A stretch of 19,520 nt of DNA from Candidatus Latescibacterota bacterium (GCA_038279365.1 JAYODI010000097.1:1-19520); one strand, 5' to 3'. Shown: positions 8,430 through 19,520, counted from the stretch's first letter. Notes: generated by a model from the sequence alone, not told the origin. Numbers and translations are program-made.

Positions 8430-9161
8430 ATGATTGAATCTCTTCTTTTAACTGCCGTACGTGTTCTCACATTTAAAAACCAGCACCAATTGACCAATGC
8501 AAGCAGCTTCTTTTTTGCTCGCAATGAGCGATTGTTTTTGGTCACCAGCCGACATGTGATGATTGATGAACCCAGCAAACATTTTCCAAATCGCATTGAA
8601 ATAGAGCTGCACAATGATGCAAACAATATGGCACTGTCTACCCACTTTTCCATTCCCCTTTATGACAAAGAAAAGCGCCTGTGGCGTCAAGGTCTTGACA
8701 CGGCTGGAGAAATAGATGTGGCCGTCATCGAAATTGACCGCAATGCCCTTCCCGCAACCACCAGTTATTATGCCTTCACGCCCGACCATCTATACCAAAC
8801 ATCCGACCAAGTTGAAGTGGGTTCTTCACTGCTTATTGTCGGTTTTCCACTCGGGTTTCACGACACCCTACACCATATGCCCGTTGCTCGCCATGCCATT
8901 ATCGCATCATCATTTGGTTTGCGCTTCCAAGGAGAAGGCTACTTTCTCACCGATGCACGCACACACCGAGGCACCAGCGGCGCACCCATAGTTATGAGAG
9001 TTGCTGATCCTGAGCATAAATTAGGCAATCTGCCCTGGATGTTACTCGGTGTCCATTCTGCACGCCTCGATGTTGGCACCCGCGATATGGAATTAGATGA
9101 AGCATTGGGCCTCAATTGTGCTTGGTATGCCGACATATTGCTCACCCTTACAGATGGTTAA
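8430..9161 (+). CDS. Trypsin-like (S1/Trypsin_2) serine protease, no signal peptide
   Basis: Catalytic triad motifs LVTSRHV (His), DVAVIEI (Asp) and GTSGAPI (Ser). Also VGFPLG and LLGVHS. Confidence 0.85.
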   Translation: MIESLLLTAVRVLTFKNQHQLTNASSFFFARNERLFLVTSRHVMIDEPSKHFPNRIEIELHNDANNMALSTHFSIPLYDKEKRLWRQGLDTAGEIDVAVIEIDRNALPATTSYYAFTPDHLYQTSDQVEVGSSLLIVGFPLGFHDTLHHMPVARHAIIASSFGLRFQGEGYFLTDARTHRGTSGAPIVMRVADPEHKLGNLPWMLLGVHSARLDVGTRDMELDEALGLNCAWYADILLTLTDG

Positions 9162-9181
9162 TATCCATCATATATTTCCCC

Positions 9182-10570
9182 ATGTCAGATATACGCCTCA
9201 CATACGACGAAGGCACGCTCATATTGCTCGATGCCAACGAAAATTTCGATCCCCCATCCTCTTTTGTATGGGACAGTCGGGTGGGGCGTTGGCGTGCCCA
9301 AGCCCACCGCTATCGCGAAATTCTTGAAGCCATTCAAGAACAAAACCTACCCATCAAAAACACCGCACCACGCTACAATCGTCTCAAACTCATTCACAAA
9401 CCCGAACACCAACCCCACCCACATCAAACCGAAGCCCTACAAGCTTGGCAAACCTATGAAAAACGCGGTGTCGTGGTGCTTCCCACAGGTTCTGGCAAAT
9501 CACACTTGGCCCTTTTGGCCATGGCCCAAGTCAATCGCAGCACCCTCATCGTGGCTCCCACCATCGACCTTATGAACCAATGGTATGACTTGCTCACCGA
9601 TGCCTTCGACCTTGAAGTGGGCATCTTAGGCGGCGGGTATCACGAAATCAATGATCTTACCGTCACCACCTACGACAGCGCCTACATGCACATGAACCGC
9701 TATGGCAATCGGTTTGGATTTCTCATCTTCGACGAAGTCCACCACTTACCTGGTGAATCGTATAGCCACGCAGGTGAAATGAGCCTGGCACCCTATCGCC
9801 TCGGCCTCACCGCCACCCTCGAACGCCCCGATGGCCGCCACCTTATGTTACGCGATCTTGTGGGCCCCACCGTTTACGAAAAAGGTATTCGCGATCTTTC
9901 AGGAGACTACCTCTCCGACTACAATACCGAACGCATCGAAGTGGACATGATTGCCGAAGAACGCACCCAATACGAAACCGCACGCACCAACTTCAACGCC
10001 TTTCTCACCGACAAGAATATTCGTCTCGGTTCTCTCAATGGGTGGCAAAATTTTGTGCGCCTTTCTGCACGGTCCAGCAATGGTCGCCGTGCCATGAAAT
10101 CCTACCAGACCTATCGCAAGCTCGCCCTTGGAACCACTGCCAAATTGCGCGTTTTAGAAGACCTGCTCAAAAAACATCCACGCGACCGCGTGCTCATTTT
10201 CACCAACGACAACGAAACCGTTTATAACATCTCCCAAACATTTCTCATTCCTGCCATTACCCACCAAACACGCACCAAAGAACGTCGTGACATTCTCCAA
10301 GCCTTCAATCGCGGTGACATACTCGCCCTCATCACCTCCCGCGTACTCAACGAAGGTGTCAACATTCCCGAGGCCAATGTCGCCATCGTCCTGTCTGGCA
10401 CGGGCACCATTCGCGAACACGTCCAACGCTTAGGCCGTATCCTACGCCGCCGCGAAGGCAAACACGCCACCCTCTACGAAGTCATTTCTCGCAACACCGT
10501 AGAAGACCAAATCTCCAAACGTCGCCGCCAACACGATGCCTATGATGGCAAGCAGGGTGAAATATTTTAG
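9182..10570 (+). CDS. XPB/Rad25-like superfamily 2 DNA helicase (likely start ATG 9182)
   Basis: Motifs VLPTGSGKS (I), VAPTIDLMNQW (Ia), FDEVHHL (II), LGLTAT (III), VLNEGVNIP (V) and QRLGRILR (VI). The N-terminal WDSRVGRWRA segment is typical of the XPB damage-recognition region. Confidence 0.9.
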   Translation: MSDIRLTYDEGTLILLDANENFDPPSSFVWDSRVGRWRAQAHRYREILEAIQEQNLPIKNTAPRYNRLKLIHKPEHQPHPHQTEALQAWQTYEKRGVVVLPTGSGKSHLALLAMAQVNRSTLIVAPTIDLMNQWYDLLTDAFDLEVGILGGGYHEINDLTVTTYDSAYMHMNRYGNRFGFLIFDEVHHLPGESYSHAGEMSLAPYRLGLTATLERPDGRHLMLRDLVGPTVYEKGIRDLSGDYLSDYNTERIEVDMIAEERTQYETARTNFNAFLTDKNIRLGSLNGWQNFVRLSARSSNGRRAMKSYQTYRKLALGTTAKLRVLEDLLKKHPRDRVLIFTNDNETVYNISQTFLIPAITHQTRTKERRDILQAFNRGDILALITSRVLNEGVNIPEANVAIVLSGTGTIREHVQRLGRILRRREGKHATLYEVISRNTVEDQISKRRRQHDAYDGKQGEIF

Positions 10571-13532: not shown

Positions 13533-14765
13533 ATGCTCACCTCCGACCTCCTCCTTGTGCGCAAACGCGGCCCCTACCTCGAACCCCGCTACATAGACCC
13601 CAAAGCCTCCGGCATACTCACCCTCGCACAAGACATCATCAACATCTTTACCGAACACCAGGGCAAAACACGCGGTGAGCTTCACGATGTGTTAGACACC
13701 CGTGCCGGTGAAGCAACAGACTATCGCATACAAAAAGGTTTGGCCAAACTCCTTGAAGACCATCGCTGTGAATTTCGCATCGACAGCATTGTCGAACCCG
13801 AAGAACTCCGCACCCACGTCTTTGCCTTGGCCCGAGAAAACCACCCCGTCGTGCGCGAACCGGATCTCATCTATCCCGTAACACGCGATCACATTCTCGA
13901 ACAAGCCGCCCTCCACTATCAAACCGCCACTGAAAATATTGAACAAAGTCTCTACGCCGATTTATCTCAAAACCATCGCTTAGACAATTTTGACGCACCC
14001 GACCCAGCTTGGCTGGTCAACCGTTATAACGTTGCCCTTGCACAAGCCATGTTCTATCGGTGTACACGCATGCGACTGTCTGTGCATCGCAACCTGCCCG
14101 TGCGCTATCAACAACTGTTCAAATTCATCAAATTCTATCGCCTCATCCACGACATCAGAGGCGACCGAGATGCAGGTTATGAAATGCACCTTGATGGCCC
14201 TGTGAGCATGTTTCGTCTCTCTCAAAAATATGGCCTCCAAATGGCCGTCTTTTTGCCCGCGCTGTTGCTCTGCACCCGCTGGAAAATGGAAGCCCACATC
14301 GAACTCAAAGACGGTCGCTCTGGTGCATTTATTCTCGACGAAAACCACAACCTCGTTTCACATTACAAAGATCAAACCGTCTACGACTCACTCCTTGAAG
14401 AAACCTTTGCCACCCGCTTCGAAAAAACCAAAACCGACTGGACCCTCGAACGGGAAACCGAAATCGTCAACCTTAAATACACCGTCTTCATTCCCGACTT
14501 TGCCTTTCGCCACCCCGATGGCCGCACCGCCCTGTTCGAAATCGTCGGCTTCTGGCACCCCGATTACCTGCGCCGCAAACTGGAAAAACTACGCCGATCA
14601 AACCGCAAAGACCTCATCGTCGCCGTTTCACGTGATCTCAATGTGGAAGAAGACGATTTCAAAGACATTCCCGGTCACGTCTTTTTCTTCAAAAACCGCA
14701 TCCAACCCAAAGATGTGATCGAACGCTTAGATCAAATCAAAATTGAAGACTGTGTGCAAGATTAA
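13533..14765 (+). CDS. DUF790 family / Bax1-like PD-(D/E)XK endonuclease
   Basis: Motifs MLTSDLL, GLAKLL, LYADL, RYNVALAQ, LDGPVSMF..SQKYGLQMA, DSLLEETFA, VFIPDF and FEIVGFWHPDYLRRKLEKL. Confidence 0.88.
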   Translation: MLTSDLLLVRKRGPYLEPRYIDPKASGILTLAQDIINIFTEHQGKTRGELHDVLDTRAGEATDYRIQKGLAKLLEDHRCEFRIDSIVEPEELRTHVFALARENHPVVREPDLIYPVTRDHILEQAALHYQTATENIEQSLYADLSQNHRLDNFDAPDPAWLVNRYNVALAQAMFYRCTRMRLSVHRNLPVRYQQLFKFIKFYRLIHDIRGDRDAGYEMHLDGPVSMFRLSQKYGLQMAVFLPALLLCTRWKMEAHIELKDGRSGAFILDENHNLVSHYKDQTVYDSLLEETFATRFEKTKTDWTLERETEIVNLKYTVFIPDFAFRHPDGRTALFEIVGFWHPDYLRRKLEKLRRSNRKDLIVAVSRDLNVEEDDFKDIPGHVFFFKNRIQPKDVIERLDQIKIEDCVQD

Positions 14766-15533: not shown

Positions 15534-15767
15534 TTACACAGGTAACTCCAAAATAGGTATCTGTGCAAATCGTTTGGGTTTATCTATATGTGTCAAAACT
15601 TTATCCATTGCCTGATCAACCGAAGCCTCAAAAAAAACTTCACCGCAGGCAGCGCATACCAAAGCAGGCACATTTTCAAAACGATACGTATTCCCCTCCC
15701 ATATCTGATCATGATAGGGCAACGTTTTCGGGTGGAGAGAGCCCCCACAAAACCCACATTCATCCAT
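15534..15767 (-). CDS. YgiT-type (MqsA N-terminal-like) zinc finger protein, putative antitoxin
   Basis: CGFCGG ... ENVPALVCAACGEVFF, with two CxxC motifs and no HTH domain. Confidence 0.85.
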   Translation of the reverse strand: MDECGFCGGSLHPKTLPYHDQIWEGNTYRFENVPALVCAACGEVFFEASVDQAMDKVLTHIDKPKRFAQIPILELPV

Positions 15768-15771
15768 GATG

Positions 15772-16089
15772 TTATCTCCTTCGTGTATACCAATCTATCC
15801 ATTTGTCAGGGTCAAACCAATGCACGGTTATAATAATTGCTCGTTCTTTAACCATGTTGTAACCACAAGCCACATAAAGCGGTTCGCCAAGTAAAACTGG
15901 ATGCATAAACAAACACTTAGGATGGGGATATGCATTCGAGTTTTGCTCAATAATTACACCGTGTAATATGGTCTGCAAAATATCATCTCGAATGATCCCA
16001 CGCAATCCCATACGCTGTCTCGCATGTTGAGATATGATATAATTATTCTTTGCAACTGCTGTACGGATTCCAGAAGTAAAATTGTTCAT
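15772..16089 (-). CDS. DUF4258 family protein, putative RelE-like toxin
   Basis: Motifs ISQHARQRMGLRGI, GVIIEQ, PKCL, PLYVAC and IIITVHWFDPDKW. It ends 4 nt before the zinc-finger gene. Confidence 0.8.
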   Translation of the reverse strand: MNNFTSGIRTAVAKNNYIISQHARQRMGLRGIIRDDILQTILHGVIIEQNSNAYPHPKCLFMHPVLLGEPLYVACGYNMVKERAIIITVHWFDPDKWIDWYTRRR

Positions 16090-16151: not shown

Positions 16152-16421
16152 TTAAGGTCTCAATTCTGGGGTTTCACTTATAACACCACGCACATAATCC
16201 GCCATCGTCTTCACACTATCAAACAACTCCACGCGCAAATCTTCATCAGGAACCTCAATTTCAAATTCTTCTTCCAACCCAACAATAATCTCAATGGTTG
16301 CCATTGAGTTAAGCCCCATCCCACCACCAAATAGTTGATCATCATCACCAATCTCATCTGGGTCTACTTCCAAAGACAATTTTCGAATAATCACTTGTTT
16401 GACTCGATCCTCAATGGACAT
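16152..16421 (-). CDS. Stand-alone acyl carrier protein
   Basis: Acidic 89-aa protein with GMGLNSMATIEIIVGLEEEFEIEVPDED (phosphopantetheine Ser39) and FDSVKTMADYV. Strong AGGAGG RBS. Confidence 0.9.
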   Translation of the reverse strand: MSIEDRVKQVIIRKLSLEVDPDEIGDDDQLFGGGMGLNSMATIEIIVGLEEEFEIEVPDEDLRVELFDSVKTMADYVRGVISETPELRP

Positions 16422-16436
16422 ATATCCCCTCCTAAA

Positions 16437-18353
16437 TTAACCTGTAGATGCCAATACCTGTTGATCTTCTGAAAAGTATTGTATCACTGTCTCAACAGCA
16501 CGCATTTGACCATCCTCTGACAGAATTTCAACAGCAGGCACTTGAAACGTATCTTCTAATTTTTTGATATGATTTTCCAATGCGGAACGTTCCATCTTTT
16601 GAGGCGTAATCATACTGCGTCCATACGCCATCCGAATATGTTTCTCGCGATCACCCATTGCCAACAACAACGTCGGTGCTTTACAAACCGCCCGAATGCC
16701 ATCAATCGTATCGCGAATATATGCCTCTGCATCAATGCTGTTCACCACCAAAATACACGCGTCGGGTTTCACACCCAACAAAAACGCCAGCGAAGACATG
16801 GTATGTGTGCTGTGCTCCATCACGTCATATGGAATGGTTCCCGATTGAGAGCCCGTCAAAATGATATCAGGCCGTTTATGTTGGCAAATTTCTCGCATCT
16901 TATAATCCAAATACGGTACATAACTCTGCAGAGGCATTTTCAACGTCGATGCATATCCCATTGGAAACGCCACATCCATCCCCAACAAACGCGCATGATG
17001 TTCTGTACCCAACTGCCCAACCCGATATCCCGCCTGTATCAATTGCCGACGCAAAGCCATTTGCAGTGTAAACTTCCCTTGCTGGGAACTGGTACCCATC
17101 ACTGCCAACACGGGCACATCCACTGGAGATAGCGATTGAAACCCGTGAATCGCTTGTGCGACTTCTGCGGGTTGAATATGTGGATATGCCAATCTCAAAC
17201 CTTTTTGATTAGCCAACTCATATAAATCCCCATATATGTCCGGATCAAGCTCCTGAAAACAAAACACATTGCGCCCTTCATCAAGCGCAATTTGCACATA
17301 CTCACGCAGCAAATCACGTTTACGAATACGCGCCAATTGATCCACATACCCCAAAACGAGGGTATCTGCATTTGCCATCGCTTTGCGAACATTTGGACTA
17401 ATTCTCAAATTTGCAAAAGATTCATCAATCACTTCCCCAGCATCCTTTCCCACCATGCCTTTTCCCACGGGGTCACCCACCCCCACCAACTCAAAACCAA
17501 GCATATCTCGATACCGCACCAAGCTATGCATCTCTTTGTTATAGGGATACAAAGCTGCTTTTTGAATCCAAGAATAGTCGTCTTGCAAAATCAAGCGAGA
17601 TGGTTGTTGGGACACTGGTATTAATTTCTTATGTTCCGTTTTTTCTTTCAATGCTTTTTCTTGTAGCAATTTGCGAATATTTTGAGCAGAAGAATTTGGA
17701 TATTGTTTTAAAAGACGCGCAACAATACCCGTTATGTGTGGCGTGGCAAAACTGTTACCTGAAGTCATAATGTGTTTATCACCCAACCAACACACCCGTT
17801 GTTCATCTCCCCGCGCCACACATTCTATTGACTGCCCTTGCCGATAATAAAACCCATCGACCTCATGAATGGCACCACCCGTCACACCAATCACTTCCTC
17901 AAACACAGCCGGATAACTCTCTCGCCCATCATTGCTCTCTGCCGCCACCATAATCAGGCCAGCATCATATGCTTTTCGACAGATATCATGCAGTAATTCC
18001 TTAACCGCTACATCCGTCGTCCCCAAACTTAAATTCACCACATCCATCTCGTTATCCATACACCACTGAATCGCCGCAACTAAAGCCTGTCCATCCGCCA
18101 TCAATGATTCGTCAAAGATCCGAACACTATACAACAAGGCATCAGGCACTTTCTTTCGAATAATTCCCGCGCACGCCGTACCATGCCCTACACAGTCGCC
18201 ATAATCATTTGAACATTCTATCCCACCATCTTCGCCAACGTGGAAACACACACCACCATCAACACCATTTACGCCAGAATGAGAAGCCTCTATACCACTA
18301 TCCACAATGGCGATTTTAAACTTGTCTTGATCTTGTTTGTTATTTCCCGACAT
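16437..18353 (-). CDS. Fusion of subtilisin-like S8 protease (N-terminal ~235 aa) and DUF1611-like domain (C-terminal ~370 aa)
   Basis: S8 triad IAIVDSG / GHGTACAG / TSGNSFATPHITG, plus VVNLSLG and YPA. The C-terminal part has a P-loop-like VMGTSSQQGKFT, GSQSG and FLLGVKPDACILVV. No signal peptide. Confidence 0.8.
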   Translation of the reverse strand: MSGNNKQDQDKFKIAIVDSGIEASHSGVNGVDGGVCFHVGEDGGIECSNDYGDCVGHGTACAGIIRKKVPDALLYSVRIFDESLMADGQALVAAIQWCMDNEMDVVNLSLGTTDVAVKELLHDICRKAYDAGLIMVAAESNDGRESYPAVFEEVIGVTGGAIHEVDGFYYRQGQSIECVARGDEQRVCWLGDKHIMTSGNSFATPHITGIVARLLKQYPNSSAQNIRKLLQEKALKEKTEHKKLIPVSQQPSRLILQDDYSWIQKAALYPYNKEMHSLVRYRDMLGFELVGVGDPVGKGMVGKDAGEVIDESFANLRISPNVRKAMANADTLVLGYVDQLARIRKRDLLREYVQIALDEGRNVFCFQELDPDIYGDLYELANQKGLRLAYPHIQPAEVAQAIHGFQSLSPVDVPVLAVMGTSSQQGKFTLQMALRRQLIQAGYRVGQLGTEHHARLLGMDVAFPMGYASTLKMPLQSYVPYLDYKMREICQHKRPDIILTGSQSGTIPYDVMEHSTHTMSSLAFLLGVKPDACILVVNSIDAEAYIRDTIDGIRAVCKAPTLLLAMGDREKHIRMAYGRSMITPQKMERSALENHIKKLEDTFQVPAVEILSEDGQMRAVETVIQYFSEDQQVLASTG

Positions 18354-19068
18354 GATTTATCTCCCCAACCAACAACGGCGAATCCATCATATTGCATTCC
18401 ACACGCACAATTTCCTTCTTCTTCCAGTCCACCAAAACCCGCAACGTATCATCAGCCTTTCTCGGCTTCCAACAATATTCAAACACACTCAAACCATTCA
18501 CCTCCATCGCATCATACCCATAACTCCGTTTATTTTGAAGCGTGCGAATATAATCATACTTATCAAAATACGGCTGTGCATCTGGATGTTTCACAATGGA
18601 TGGCAAGTAATTCTCCATCAAAAGATTGGTTCCCGGCACCGCACGAAAACCACCACGTTTATAAAATGGTATACCTTTTCGGTTGAATGACCAGGTCGTC
18701 AATTCAACACGCTTACATATGTTTGATTCACACATTTTTCGCAAGCAAGCATTTCCAAGGGTCAAACCAAATATGCCACGCTTCTGAAAATCTGGATGGG
18801 TTTCAACATGTGAGAATATGACTATAGTTGAATCTGATTTTTGAGGTGTAATTCGCATCGCAGATATAATCTGATTATCACGGTTTAAAGTGAATATTTT
18901 GCATTTTTTTAAATCTTGGACGATATTTCTACTATTTATTAAAGGTTTTTGATCTGGCTCTCGTTGATACGCATTAGAAGTTAAAGTCCAATGATTTTTC
19001 CGAATGTTGTTTAAAAACTCAGATAGTTCTAATGCATTTTCTGATCTAAAATCAAGTACCTTGTACAT
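18340..19068 (-). CDS. GNAT family N-acyltransferase
   Basis: Motif A HVETHPDFQKRGIFG and motif B WSFNRKGIPFYKRGGF, plus a C-terminal extension. It overlaps the S8 fusion start by 14 nt. Confidence 0.85.
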   Translation of the reverse strand: MYKVLDFRSENALELSEFLNNIRKNHWTLTSNAYQREPDQKPLINSRNIVQDLKKCKIFTLNRDNQIISAMRITPQKSDSTIVIFSHVETHPDFQKRGIFGLTLGNACLRKMCESNICKRVELTTWSFNRKGIPFYKRGGFRAVPGTNLLMENYLPSIVKHPDAQPYFDKYDYIRTLQNKRSYGYDAMEVNGLSVFEYCWKPRKADDTLRVLVDWKKKEIVRVECNMMDSPLLVGEINHVGK

Positions 19069-19102
19069 ATCAATAAGATTCCATCATTTTATAGGGGCTT
19101 GG

Positions 19103-19134
19103 AGAAAGAAATACAACCGTTTGATTAAACGTTG
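19103..19134 (-). terminator. Weak stem-loop plus U-rich tract between the putative precursor gene and the GNAT gene
   Basis: Minus strand CAACGTTT-AATC-AAACGGTTG followed by TATTTCTTTCT. Confidence 0.4.
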
Positions 19135-19167
19135 CTAATTTTCGATGTAACTAAACATTTATGCAAG

Positions 19168-19518
19168 CTAATCATCTTTTTTGGGTTCCATTACATAATT
19201 GTCACCATCATTACCCAAATGACACCCTGCACATTGATAGGCAACCGCCGTACCATAAGCACCAGCACCAGCACTAAGCCCACCAGTTACAAATCCCCCA
19301 CCAGCTATCAAGCCAGTAACAACAAGACCCATTGGTCCACTTGTAGCAGCAGGAGCTACAGCTGCTGCTGCCGCTGCAGCACCTTTCATGCCACCAGCAA
19401 TACTTGCGCCTAATGTTGCCAGTGCAGCAGAATCACTATTATTAACCGTTGACGTTGCATGACCTACGGGGTTGTCGTAGACGTTAGGAATGGTTTGTTT
19501 ATTCTTTTCTTCCTCTTC
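19168..19518 (-). CDS. Gly/Ala-rich putative RiPP/bacteriocin-like precursor, 5'-truncated by the window edge (at least 116 aa)
   Basis: The frame is open from the window edge: ...EEEEKNKQTIPNVYDNPVGHATSTVNNSDSAALATLGASIAGG-MKGAAAAAAAVAPAATSGPMGLVVTGLIAGGGFVTGGLSAGAGAYGTAVAYQCAGCHLGNDGDNYVMEPKKDD*. It is co-oriented with and directly upstream of GNAT, S8-DUF1611 and ACP. Confidence 0.6.
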   Translation of the reverse strand, partial: EEEEKNKQTIPNVYDNPVGHATSTVNNSDSAALATLGASIAGGMKGAAAAAAAVAPAATSGPMGLVVTGLIAGGGFVTGGLSAGAGAYGTAVAYQCAGCHLGNDGDNYVMEPKKDD

Positions 19519-19520
19519 TT

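Follow-up and report, generated by a model that had tools for sequence, protein, structure and literature searches.

Genes at the end of the contig

The DNA studied here (the window) is a stretch of 19,520 nucleotides from a Candidatus Latescibacterota bacterium (GCA_038279365.1 JAYODI010000097.1:1-19520), and it is the entire contig C109 of a 6.0-Mb assembly of 199 contigs. Its last 3.4 kb carries four open reading frames (ORFs), all on the minus strand and closely packed, which encode a precursor peptide, a GNAT acyltransferase, a fusion of a subtilisin-like S8 protease with a DUF1611 domain, and an acyl carrier protein (ACP). An earlier note, made from the sequence alone, had marked this region as a candidate locus for a lipidated peptide that is made by the ribosome and modified after translation (RiPP). 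The four genes were all confirmed by ORF calls at the positions given there. The two spacings it reported, a 14-nt overlap of the GNAT and fusion genes (18340-18353) and a 15-nt gap between the fusion and carrier genes (16422-16436), were exact, and its four domain calls were borne out by Pfam. The features are:

19168..19518, minus strand: 3' part of the precursor gene, 116 codons plus stop (ORF call and orthologue comparison)
18340..19068, minus strand: GNAT acyltransferase, 242 amino acids (PF00583, 1.2e-5)
16437..18353, minus strand: whole S8-DUF1611 fusion gene, 638 amino acids (ORF call, Pfam and alignment)
17631..18323, minus strand: S8 (subtilisin-like) domain of the fusion, residues ~11-241 (PF00082, 1.6e-25)
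16476..17576, minus strand: DUF1611/TIGR04066-like domain of the fusion, residues ~260-626 (PF07755, 2.3e-11)
16152..16421, minus strand: acyl carrier protein, 89 amino acids, with the Ser39 codon at 16305-16307 (PF00550, 3.5e-11)

The sequence AGGAGG precedes the ATG of the carrier gene, and a promoter and terminator scan gave nothing usable above background. The truncation of the cluster is due to the end of the assembly, because the window is an entire contig. The last 21-127 bases of the window recur in no other contig of the assembly. Contigs from three of the four public runs compared reach 84-295 letters past 19520, and the read depth of these runs is 2-5; the assembly break at the window end can therefore be ascribed to low depth.

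The reading frame of the precursor is open to the contig end over its 116 codons. Four full-length orthologues (P0334-P0337) have 144-146 residues and are 72-97% identical to the 116 residues encoded in the window. Since they carry about 30 further N-terminal residues, the leader is missing from the window. The first gene thus encodes a Gly/Ala-rich peptide as the earlier note had said, but it is the 3' part of a 146-codon gene and not a complete small ORF. The ATG at 19389 was considered as its start and rejected, because it is internal by comparison with the same orthologues. The nearest orthologue lies on a 31,684-bp contig, which also encodes a fusion protein with 88% and a GNAT with 95% identity.

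The extra N-terminus of the orthologues has a basic start followed by hydrophobic-hydrophobic-Ala-Tyr-Gly-Ser-Glu-Asp. The mature part is composed of an acidic stretch, a KQTIPNVYDNPVGHATS block, a hydrophobic region of about 65 residues rich in Gly/Ala and, at the C-terminus, QCAGCH...M.P, and is strongly conserved among the five sequences. The core of the window precursor is Gly/Ala-rich and has two cysteines, and C126, C129, H130 and M140 are invariant in the five orthologous sequences. At the C-terminus (window 19168-19260, minus strand; P0334-P0337), the invariant QCAGCH is followed ten residues on by an invariant Met-x-Pro. The CxxCH pattern resembles a c-type haem site, and other precursor types in related loci terminate with CxxxCH or CxxC..H. 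No Pfam or NCBIfam match was obtained for the 116-residue part in the window or for the leader-bearing precursors of related loci, in a scan that did not include P0334-P0337.

In many paralogous clusters, the small ORFs located 3' of an ABC transporter gene share a common N-terminus, whereas their mature parts are unrelated. The leader Tyr is invariant in 24 of 24 aligned precursors from these clusters, with Ala (or Leu/Gly/Pro) before it, Val/Ile three positions back and acidic residues after it. A hidden Markov model (HMM) of this leader was iterated three times across all six frames of 78 loci. The matches of the successive iterations lay on the strand of the fusion gene (23/23, 26/26 and 27/27), and the final model gave 28 same-strand matches in 25 of the 78 loci, the count for this last pass being restricted to the same strand. 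Judged from these alignments, a genuine leader-bearing precursor family exists. Classical subtilisins prefer a hydrophobic residue at P4 (S4) and an aromatic one at P1 (S1). Because the hydrophobic P4 and aromatic P1 of the leader fit this preference, we place the putative cleavage site after the invariant Tyr. A link between leaders of the 'AYS' type and the presence of the GNAT formed a suggestive pattern, and was set aside because the loci are kin and exceptions occur.

The enzymes, the carrier protein and related loci

The S8 domain belongs to the Peptidase S8 family (PF00082, 90.5 bits against a cut-off of 21.8), and it has the catalytic triad, the oxyanion Asn and a subtilisin fold. Alignment of 30 fusion proteins showed D18, H57 and S201 to be invariant and N107 to be nearly so, and by these residues the domain is predicted to be catalytically intact. 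There is no space for a signal peptide or a pro-domain, because the catalytic Asp is residue 18. The nearest NCBIfam model is QhpE, with 159.6 bits just below the cut-off of 165. The AlphaFold2 (AF2) model of the fusion protein shows both halves well folded and, between them, a linker of low confidence at residues 239-257 (mean predicted local distance difference test score, pLDDT, 84.2; predicted template modelling score, pTM, 0.59). Its S8 half matches subtilisins, the lanthipeptide leader peptidases LicP, EpiP and NisP, and PatA, with Z of 22-27 overall and 24-27 for the subtilisins and lanthipeptide leader peptidases. We propose that the S8 domain is the leader peptidase of the cluster.

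The DUF1611 domain has a Rossmann-like N sub-domain and a P-loop C sub-domain with a GTSSQQGKF motif, in which G420, T421 and F428 are invariant and K427 is nearly invariant in the same alignment. Its DUF1611/DgcN-like fold is supported by PF07755 (43.9 bits, cut-off 25), while PF17396 scored 16.9 bits, below its cut-off of 22.6. The best structural matches of the C-terminal half (VIA) were TM0796 (2g0t, Z 30.3) and the DUF1611 protein Ava_3511 (2obn, Z 28.9). The N-acetyltransferase DgcN (7xrj) was matched with Z 25.0 over 306 aligned residues, with a root mean square deviation of 3.9 and 18% identity. More distant matches were dethiobiotin synthetase and MinD/ApbC-type nucleoside triphosphatases (NTPases; Z 14-15). 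The TIGR04066 model matched residues 265-628 (129.3 bits, E 1.7e-37) and its cut-off of 200 was not reached. By these scores the C-terminal half appears to be a relative of TIGR04066 and not a member under the curated rule. The nearest clusters in the Atlas are stand-alone Bacillota DUF1611/TIGR04066 proteins. In the protein database, 1077 fusion homologues were found at E<=1e-3 among 8000 scored candidates, and the C-terminal half alone gave 1355 cluster representatives at E<=1e-3, 924 at 1e-10 and 467 at 1e-30. Among the 150 best matches of this half, 118 are 560-730 amino acids long with a match that starts past residue 200 (counted from the table, not individually inspected), which fits the same fusion architecture.

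The carrier protein belongs to the PP-binding family (PF00550, 43.6 bits, cut-off 20.8). It scored up to 63 bits with NCBIfam ACP models (PRK07081), below their cut-offs, and 15.9 bits with the acyl carrier-related protein TIGR04069, whose cut-off of 70 was not reached. Ser39 is invariant in 18 aligned sequences and is the predicted site of phosphopantetheine attachment, and the carrier seems to be dedicated to the cluster.

The GNAT has a core of about residues 1-150, with a QKRGIFG loop, and a conserved beta-rich C-terminal extension. Its Q-x-x-G-x-G (coenzyme A-type) loop motif is invariant in the alignment. The family is small, with 64 proteins found, and all 11 of the 11 non-self orthologues in the genomes of relatives (>=46% identical) are encoded directly upstream of a fusion gene, so that this GNAT is by its gene neighbourhood dedicated to these clusters. 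In the AF2 model (pLDDT 87.8) the C-terminal extension has no structural match, and the best folds are the small acetyl-CoA enzymes PaiA, RimL, MccE and phosphinothricin acetyltransferases. The GNAT thus looks like an acetyl-CoA enzyme, and by its distribution it appears to be a clade-specific accessory.

The fusion protein was matched in 58 of 61 genomes (the own genome and 60 relatives), many of these matches being confined to the S8 part of a large, unrelated protein. Full-length copies occur often, and in one genome (G024) there are six of them plus a split copy. A scan of species-representative genomes gave 231 encoding stretches, from which the 78 loci were kept; 64 of them, with at least 3 kb upstream and at least 1.5 kb downstream, were counted. 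Nearly all of the 78 are titled Candidatus Latescibacterota, and a few carry Gemmatimonadota, KSB1 or Palauibacter labels. These comparisons indicate that the cluster is common and multi-copy in Latescibacterota. One locus (L016; G017:C1:3887300-3905300) is a tandemly expanded cluster with repeated TPR-CPBP units, interspersed GNAT gene fragments and a transposase-sized ORF, an arrangement that shows these loci to be actively duplicating and decaying.

The carrier gene follows the fusion gene in all of the ten closest loci, and the GNAT gene precedes it in six. Among 30 loci with 31-74% identity, 24 have an adjacent carrier gene and 6 an adjacent GNAT gene. In the 64 counted loci, a carrier gene adjoins the fusion gene on the same strand in 49 and occurs anywhere in the locus in 56, while the GNAT is adjacent in 7 and present anywhere in 9. 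A BtrH-like protein was found in 28 of the 64 loci, and a same-strand ABC gene like that of the query in 38. The 30-locus and 64-locus sets overlap and come from related genomes, and the counts are descriptive rather than independent trials. The arrangement is far from chance: the carrier adjoins the fusion in 49/64 loci and 11/11 GNAT orthologues precede a fusion gene. The earlier note had proposed to search the neighbourhoods of S8-DUF1611 homologues for a recurring ACP and a short precursor, and both were found (49/64 adjacent carriers; leader-bearing short precursors in 25/78 loci).

Pfam scans were made for the other 17 ORFs of the window, 6 ORFs of contig C10 and 160 neighbour ORFs of related loci (15+36+109). 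Recurrent neighbour families were CPBP/Rce1-like membrane proteins, TPR proteins, AhpC/TSA redoxins, Yip1, rhodanese, MauE/DoxX, HlyD with ABC, RND or MacB pumps, glycosyltransferases and a sulfotransferase. CPBP/Abi-type genes are typical of bacteriocin immunity. The thiol-redox genes (MauE/DoxX, membrane-anchored AhpC/TSA redoxins, rhodanese) recur in more distant clusters (L055 12374-12811; neighbours of L061, L075, L095 and L101) and hint at periplasmic handling of the peptide cysteines. No radical SAM enzyme, polyketide synthase (PKS) or fatty acid synthase (FAS) component (ketosynthase (KS), acyltransferase, ketoreductase) or AMP-binding ligase was detected in any of the scanned ORF sets, the unassembled gap between C10 and C109 lying outside the scan. 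Lanthionine-type enzymes were not found among the scanned ORFs of the window and related loci, nor YcaO among the neighbour ORFs of related loci.

Directly 3' of the carrier gene, BtrH_N+DUF4872 proteins scored above the Pfam cut-offs in at least eight loci. In the closest relatives, the BtrH-like copies scored 26.5 bits, below the cut-off of 29.7, and the GNAT and the BtrH-like gene both flank the fusion-carrier pair. The alternative in this position is a protein of about 900 amino acids with PP-binding and Condensation domains (L038 1988-4699; L081 10165-12885; L096 10300-12999), whose N-terminal 360 residues have no family; a BtrH-like N-terminus was looked for in the L038 protein and not detected. 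Such a protein is an amide-forming module of the nonribosomal peptide synthetase (NRPS) type within a ribosomal-peptide cluster. Across the loci compared, the conserved partners of the carrier appear to be the fused DgcN-like domain, the BtrH_N/DUF4872 proteins and these peptidyl carrier protein (PCP)-condensation proteins. Enzymes of the BtrH and condensation types use carrier-bound thioesters and form amides. Because one or the other directly follows the carrier gene in many loci, the carrier may by analogy hold a thioester (acyl or aminoacyl) destined for an amine, and this is the best indirect sign of its role.

The earlier note had expected further enzymes beyond 19520. For the transporter this was right: at its end contig C10 encodes HlyD and a 572-aa ABC protein, followed by the beginning of a different leader-bearing ORF, and HlyD/ABC genes are also present in related loci. 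The radical SAM enzyme and the acyl-AMP ligase that it also suggested were absent from the scanned ORFs. The HlyD protein of C10 shares 70% and its ABC protein 81% identity with their counterparts in related clusters, and the ABC proteins of C10 and related loci (571-572 aa) contain ABC_membrane and ABC_tran only, without a C39 domain. The second precursor ORF occupies the last 120 bases of C10 (G000; L123 11746-11865), begins 160 nt past the ABC gene and runs off the contig. It was considered as the missing N-terminus of the window precursor and rejected, because its sequence is that of a different precursor. C10 and C109 are likely to be neighbours in the genome; if so, the cluster probably holds at least two precursors.

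On the other side, the cluster stops 3' of the carrier gene, where a DUF4258 gene and a small partner ORF are followed by unrelated genes. The DUF4258-family ORF (105 aa, 1.5e-15) and then a 77-aa Cys-rich ORF without a Pfam match occupy 15534-16089 on the minus strand; they look like a toxin-antitoxin-type pair and mark the cluster edge. Elsewhere in the window, an XPB/ERCC3-type helicase with a damage-recognition domain (9116-10570, plus strand) and a DUF790 protein (13533-14765, plus strand) are separated by 3 kb, in which DUF5069, DUF480 and YccV-like genes are located. GC skew is negative in all 1-kb intervals of the window (-0.11 to -0.36) irrespective of the coding strand, and AT skew is mainly positive.

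A proposed maturation pathway and its alternatives

Our preferred interpretation, which we hold at slightly less than even confidence, is that the window end carries the distal half of a cluster for the leader-dependent maturation and export of a peptide, that is, a bacteriocin-like ribosomal peptide system with a cleave-and-modify package. The more general statement is probably correct: maturation depends on a leader, which the S8 domain cuts off as leader peptidase, and a thioester is provided by the carrier. The specific role of the DUF1611 domain as a carrier-dependent transferase is put forward only tentatively. The peptide-maturation cluster suggested by the earlier note is thus upheld by the leader-bearing precursor family, the intact S8 triad and the dedicated carrier with its invariant Ser39.

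In the proposed pathway, a 146-residue precursor would be made with an N-terminal leader of about 25-30 residues (basic start, hydrophobic-x-Ala-Tyr, acidic residues). The pro-domain-less S8 domain would remove the leader in the cytoplasm after the invariant Tyr. The fused DgcN-like domain and the holo-carrier would then move the carrier-bound thioester group to an amine of the freed peptide, and the newly exposed N-terminus would be the simplest acceptor ("cleave and cap"). In this sub-clade the GNAT may add, or substitute for, a further N-acylation, probably of the acetyl type. The glycine-zipper-like product would finally leave through the HlyD/ABC pair found at the C10 end. The genes present, their conservation, the folds and the intactness of the catalytic and attachment residues are shown by the analysis, and where the leader is cut, in which direction an acyl group moves and what it is, what the carrier bears and how C10 joins C109 are inferred. 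That such a cleave-and-cap fusion defines a new ribosomal-peptide class, in which an Ala-Tyr leader is removed and a carrier group is transferred to a peptide of about 120 residues in the same complex, is conceivable and rather doubtful.

Several points weigh against this interpretation. The chemistry of the system's members is deduced from their families. Leader-type precursors were recognised in just 25 of the 78 loci, 15 of the 64 loci have no adjacent carrier gene, and the related loci, being from kin genomes, do not count as independent. No carrier-loading enzyme was found among the scanned ORFs of the window, C10 and the related-locus neighbours. The own genome has no BtrH-like gene after the carrier; the one homologue that it has, 35% identical, lies in an unrelated setting on contig C144. 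The junction of C10 and C109 is a deduced one, with no sequence overlap and a different precursor at the C10 end. As to the fusion protein, the arrangement of its domains in the model is uncertain at a pTM of 0.59, the identity of the DUF1611 domain to DgcN in the structural alignment is only 18%, and DgcN was not among the PDB sequence-search results for this half, in which 2g0t was the sole match. The P-loop of this domain could instead mean an ATP-using carrier loader.

In that alternative, the DUF1611 domain would use ATP or acyl-CoA to charge the carrier with an acyl or aminoacyl group, and a separate BtrH_N/DUF4872, PCP-condensation or GNAT protein would transfer it. The conserved GTSSQQGKF P-loop and the distant resemblance in fold to dethiobiotin synthetase and MinD/ApbC-type NTPases agree with this, as do the lack of any other loading gene among the scanned neighbours, the candidate transferases 3' of the carrier gene in many loci, and the GNAT and BtrH-like genes that flank the fusion-carrier pair in the closest relatives. 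However, the sole DUF1611-fold match with a named activity is an acetyltransferase (7xrj) and not a ligase, several loci have the fusion and carrier without a recognised transferase, and the window has neither a BtrH-like nor a condensation gene. We consider a loading role unlikely, and only a little less probable than the transferase role. A goadvionin-type lipo-RiPP, in which the GNAT would move a fatty or polyketide chain from the carrier to the N-terminus exposed by the S8 protease, was the view of the earlier note. It was right that a maturation cluster with a GNAT and a carrier is present. The gene spacing implies that GNAT, carrier and protease are transcribed together, and this GNAT family is a dedicated part of such clusters. 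Moreover, the goadvionin GNATs use carrier-bound acyl donors (PMC8784127), and a carrier-dependent GNAT, SbzI, is on record (PMC11685415). Nevertheless, such a product requires a lipid source, and no KS, PKS/FAS or acyl-AMP ligase was found in the window, C10 or the scanned related-locus ORFs. The GNAT model resembles PaiA, RimL, MccE and phosphinothricin acetyltransferases, and the carrier cannot exist mainly to serve the GNAT, because the GNAT is adjacent in 7/64 loci and the carrier in 49/64. The claim that the GNAT is the central ACP-dependent lipidating enzyme was thus not supported, either by its distribution or by its acetyl-CoA-type model, and we regard the fatty-acyl reading as only partly supported and improbable.

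The product could also, like QhpC, be a polypeptide with a function in the periplasm or membrane and no antimicrobial role, for example a small protein that binds metal or haem through CxxCH...M. For such a role speak the S8 domain with QhpE as its nearest model, the order of cytoplasmic leader removal and then ABC export, which follows the logic of QhpC/E/F, the invariant C126, C129, H130 and M140 in the five orthologues, and the thiol-redox neighbours in related loci (AhpC/TSA redoxins, MauE/DoxX, rhodanese). A functional subunit is hard to reconcile with mature parts that are hypervariable among paralogous clusters while the leader is kept, with up to six full-length copies per genome (G024), or with the accompanying CPBP/Abi-type genes typical of bacteriocin immunity. 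In addition, other precursor types are without CxxCH and no partner enzyme subunits were seen. This makes a QhpC-like role very improbable, and the cleave-and-modify peptide system described above is preferred.

Comparison with known systems

In the maturation of QhpC, the gamma subunit of quinohemoprotein amine dehydrogenase, QhpE removes a 28-residue leader in the cytoplasm, after which an efflux ABC transporter exports the product (PMC7876137). QhpE/QhpC/QhpF resemble the present system in a compact pro-domain-less subtilisin, a leader taken off a polypeptide of about 110 residues, and an ABC exporter without C39. In contrast, the protease here scores 159.6 bits, below the cut-off of 165, and is fused to DUF1611 and paired with a carrier, and its substrates are hypervariable and multi-copy. 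The window and the C10 ORFs contain no equivalents of qhpA-D or qhpG (no QhpD radical SAM enzyme, QhpG or dehydrogenase subunit). The S8 domain thus appears to work like QhpE but, by its score, is not a member of that family.

The closest relation of the DUF1611-carrier pair is the TIGR04066/TIGR04069/CcpM system of Bacillota, which was predicted by comparative genomics and has a DUF1611-related protein and a carrier homologue beside candidate precursors. The earlier note had mentioned a clostridial link of this kind. The relation is real, with a TIGR04066 match of the C-terminal half at 1.7e-37, the same pairing near precursors and Bacillota neighbours in the Atlas, but both scores are below the cut-offs (129.3/200 and 15.9/70 bits). 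Moreover, the DUF1611 part here is fused to S8, the taxon is Latescibacterota, and the precursors have 120-180 amino acids, a different leader and only two cysteines. A CcpM-type radical SAM/SPASM maturase beside the pair was absent from the window, C10 and the 160 neighbour ORFs, with the assembly gap outside the scan.

DgcN is a D-glutamate N-acetyltransferase, which acylates an amine from a pantetheine thioester, with acetyl-CoA as the donor. It shares the two-sub-domain fold (7xrj, Z 25.0), but it stands alone as a catabolic enzyme whose substrate is a free amino acid, whereas the domain here, 18% identical, is fused to a protease beside a carrier and a precursor. BtrH of butirosin biosynthesis likewise moves a carrier-bound acyl group onto an amine. 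The BtrH/BtrI pair has a parallel in the related loci that encode BtrH_N+DUF4872 proteins beside a carrier gene; here, however, the acceptor would be a peptide and not an aminoglycoside, and the window is without a BtrH-like gene.

Class II microcins and double-glycine bacteriocins are Gly/Ala-rich peptides of about 80-120 residues, unmodified or lightly modified, with a short leader, ABC and HlyD-type export and CPBP/Abi-type immunity genes. The present system shares a Gly/Ala-rich peptide, an ABC protein with a HlyD-type adaptor and nearby CPBP/Abi-type genes. It departs from them in its Ala-Tyr rather than Gly-Gly leader and an ABC protein without C39; cleavage is assigned to the cytoplasmic S8 domain, and a carrier and a DUF1611 domain are added. 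Goadvionins, lipolanthines and selidamides have in common with it a ribosomal precursor and a cluster GNAT, and goadvionins also a carrier-bound acyl donor (PMC8784127). However, the scanned ORFs contain neither PKS/FAS chain-building genes nor lanthionine or avionin enzymes. The Cys/Ser/Thr-rich core of goadvionins is absent, the GNAT is accessory, and in place of an NHLP/Nif11 leader ending in Gly-Gly, as in selidamides, the alignment gives a short leader of the Ala-Tyr type.

In the literature searched, supplements being outside the search, no description of an S8-DUF1611/carrier/Ala-Tyr-leader system was found, and the closest Latescibacterota RiPP literature gives antiSMASH classes only. 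The models of curated families likewise do not capture these parts at their own cut-offs. If our interpretation is true, a large orphan enzyme family (the DUF1611-like half, with 1355 cluster representatives at E<=1e-3) would obtain a function that can be tested, and the uncharacterised TIGR04066/TIGR04069-type pair of Bacillota its first function. The system would also join carrier-protein chemistry to ribosomal peptides in a new way, without a PKS or NRPS assembly line, and would reveal a multi-copy hallmark of Latescibacterota, a duplicated peptide arsenal in an uncultured phylum (six full-length copies in G024), whose conserved leader is a simple handle for mining more substrates. In conclusion, the parts are of known kinds (S8 leader peptidase, carrier, GNAT, ABC export), while the DgcN-like fusion, the Ala-Tyr leader and the pairing with a carrier would be new, and there is a fair chance that the chemistry is new as well.

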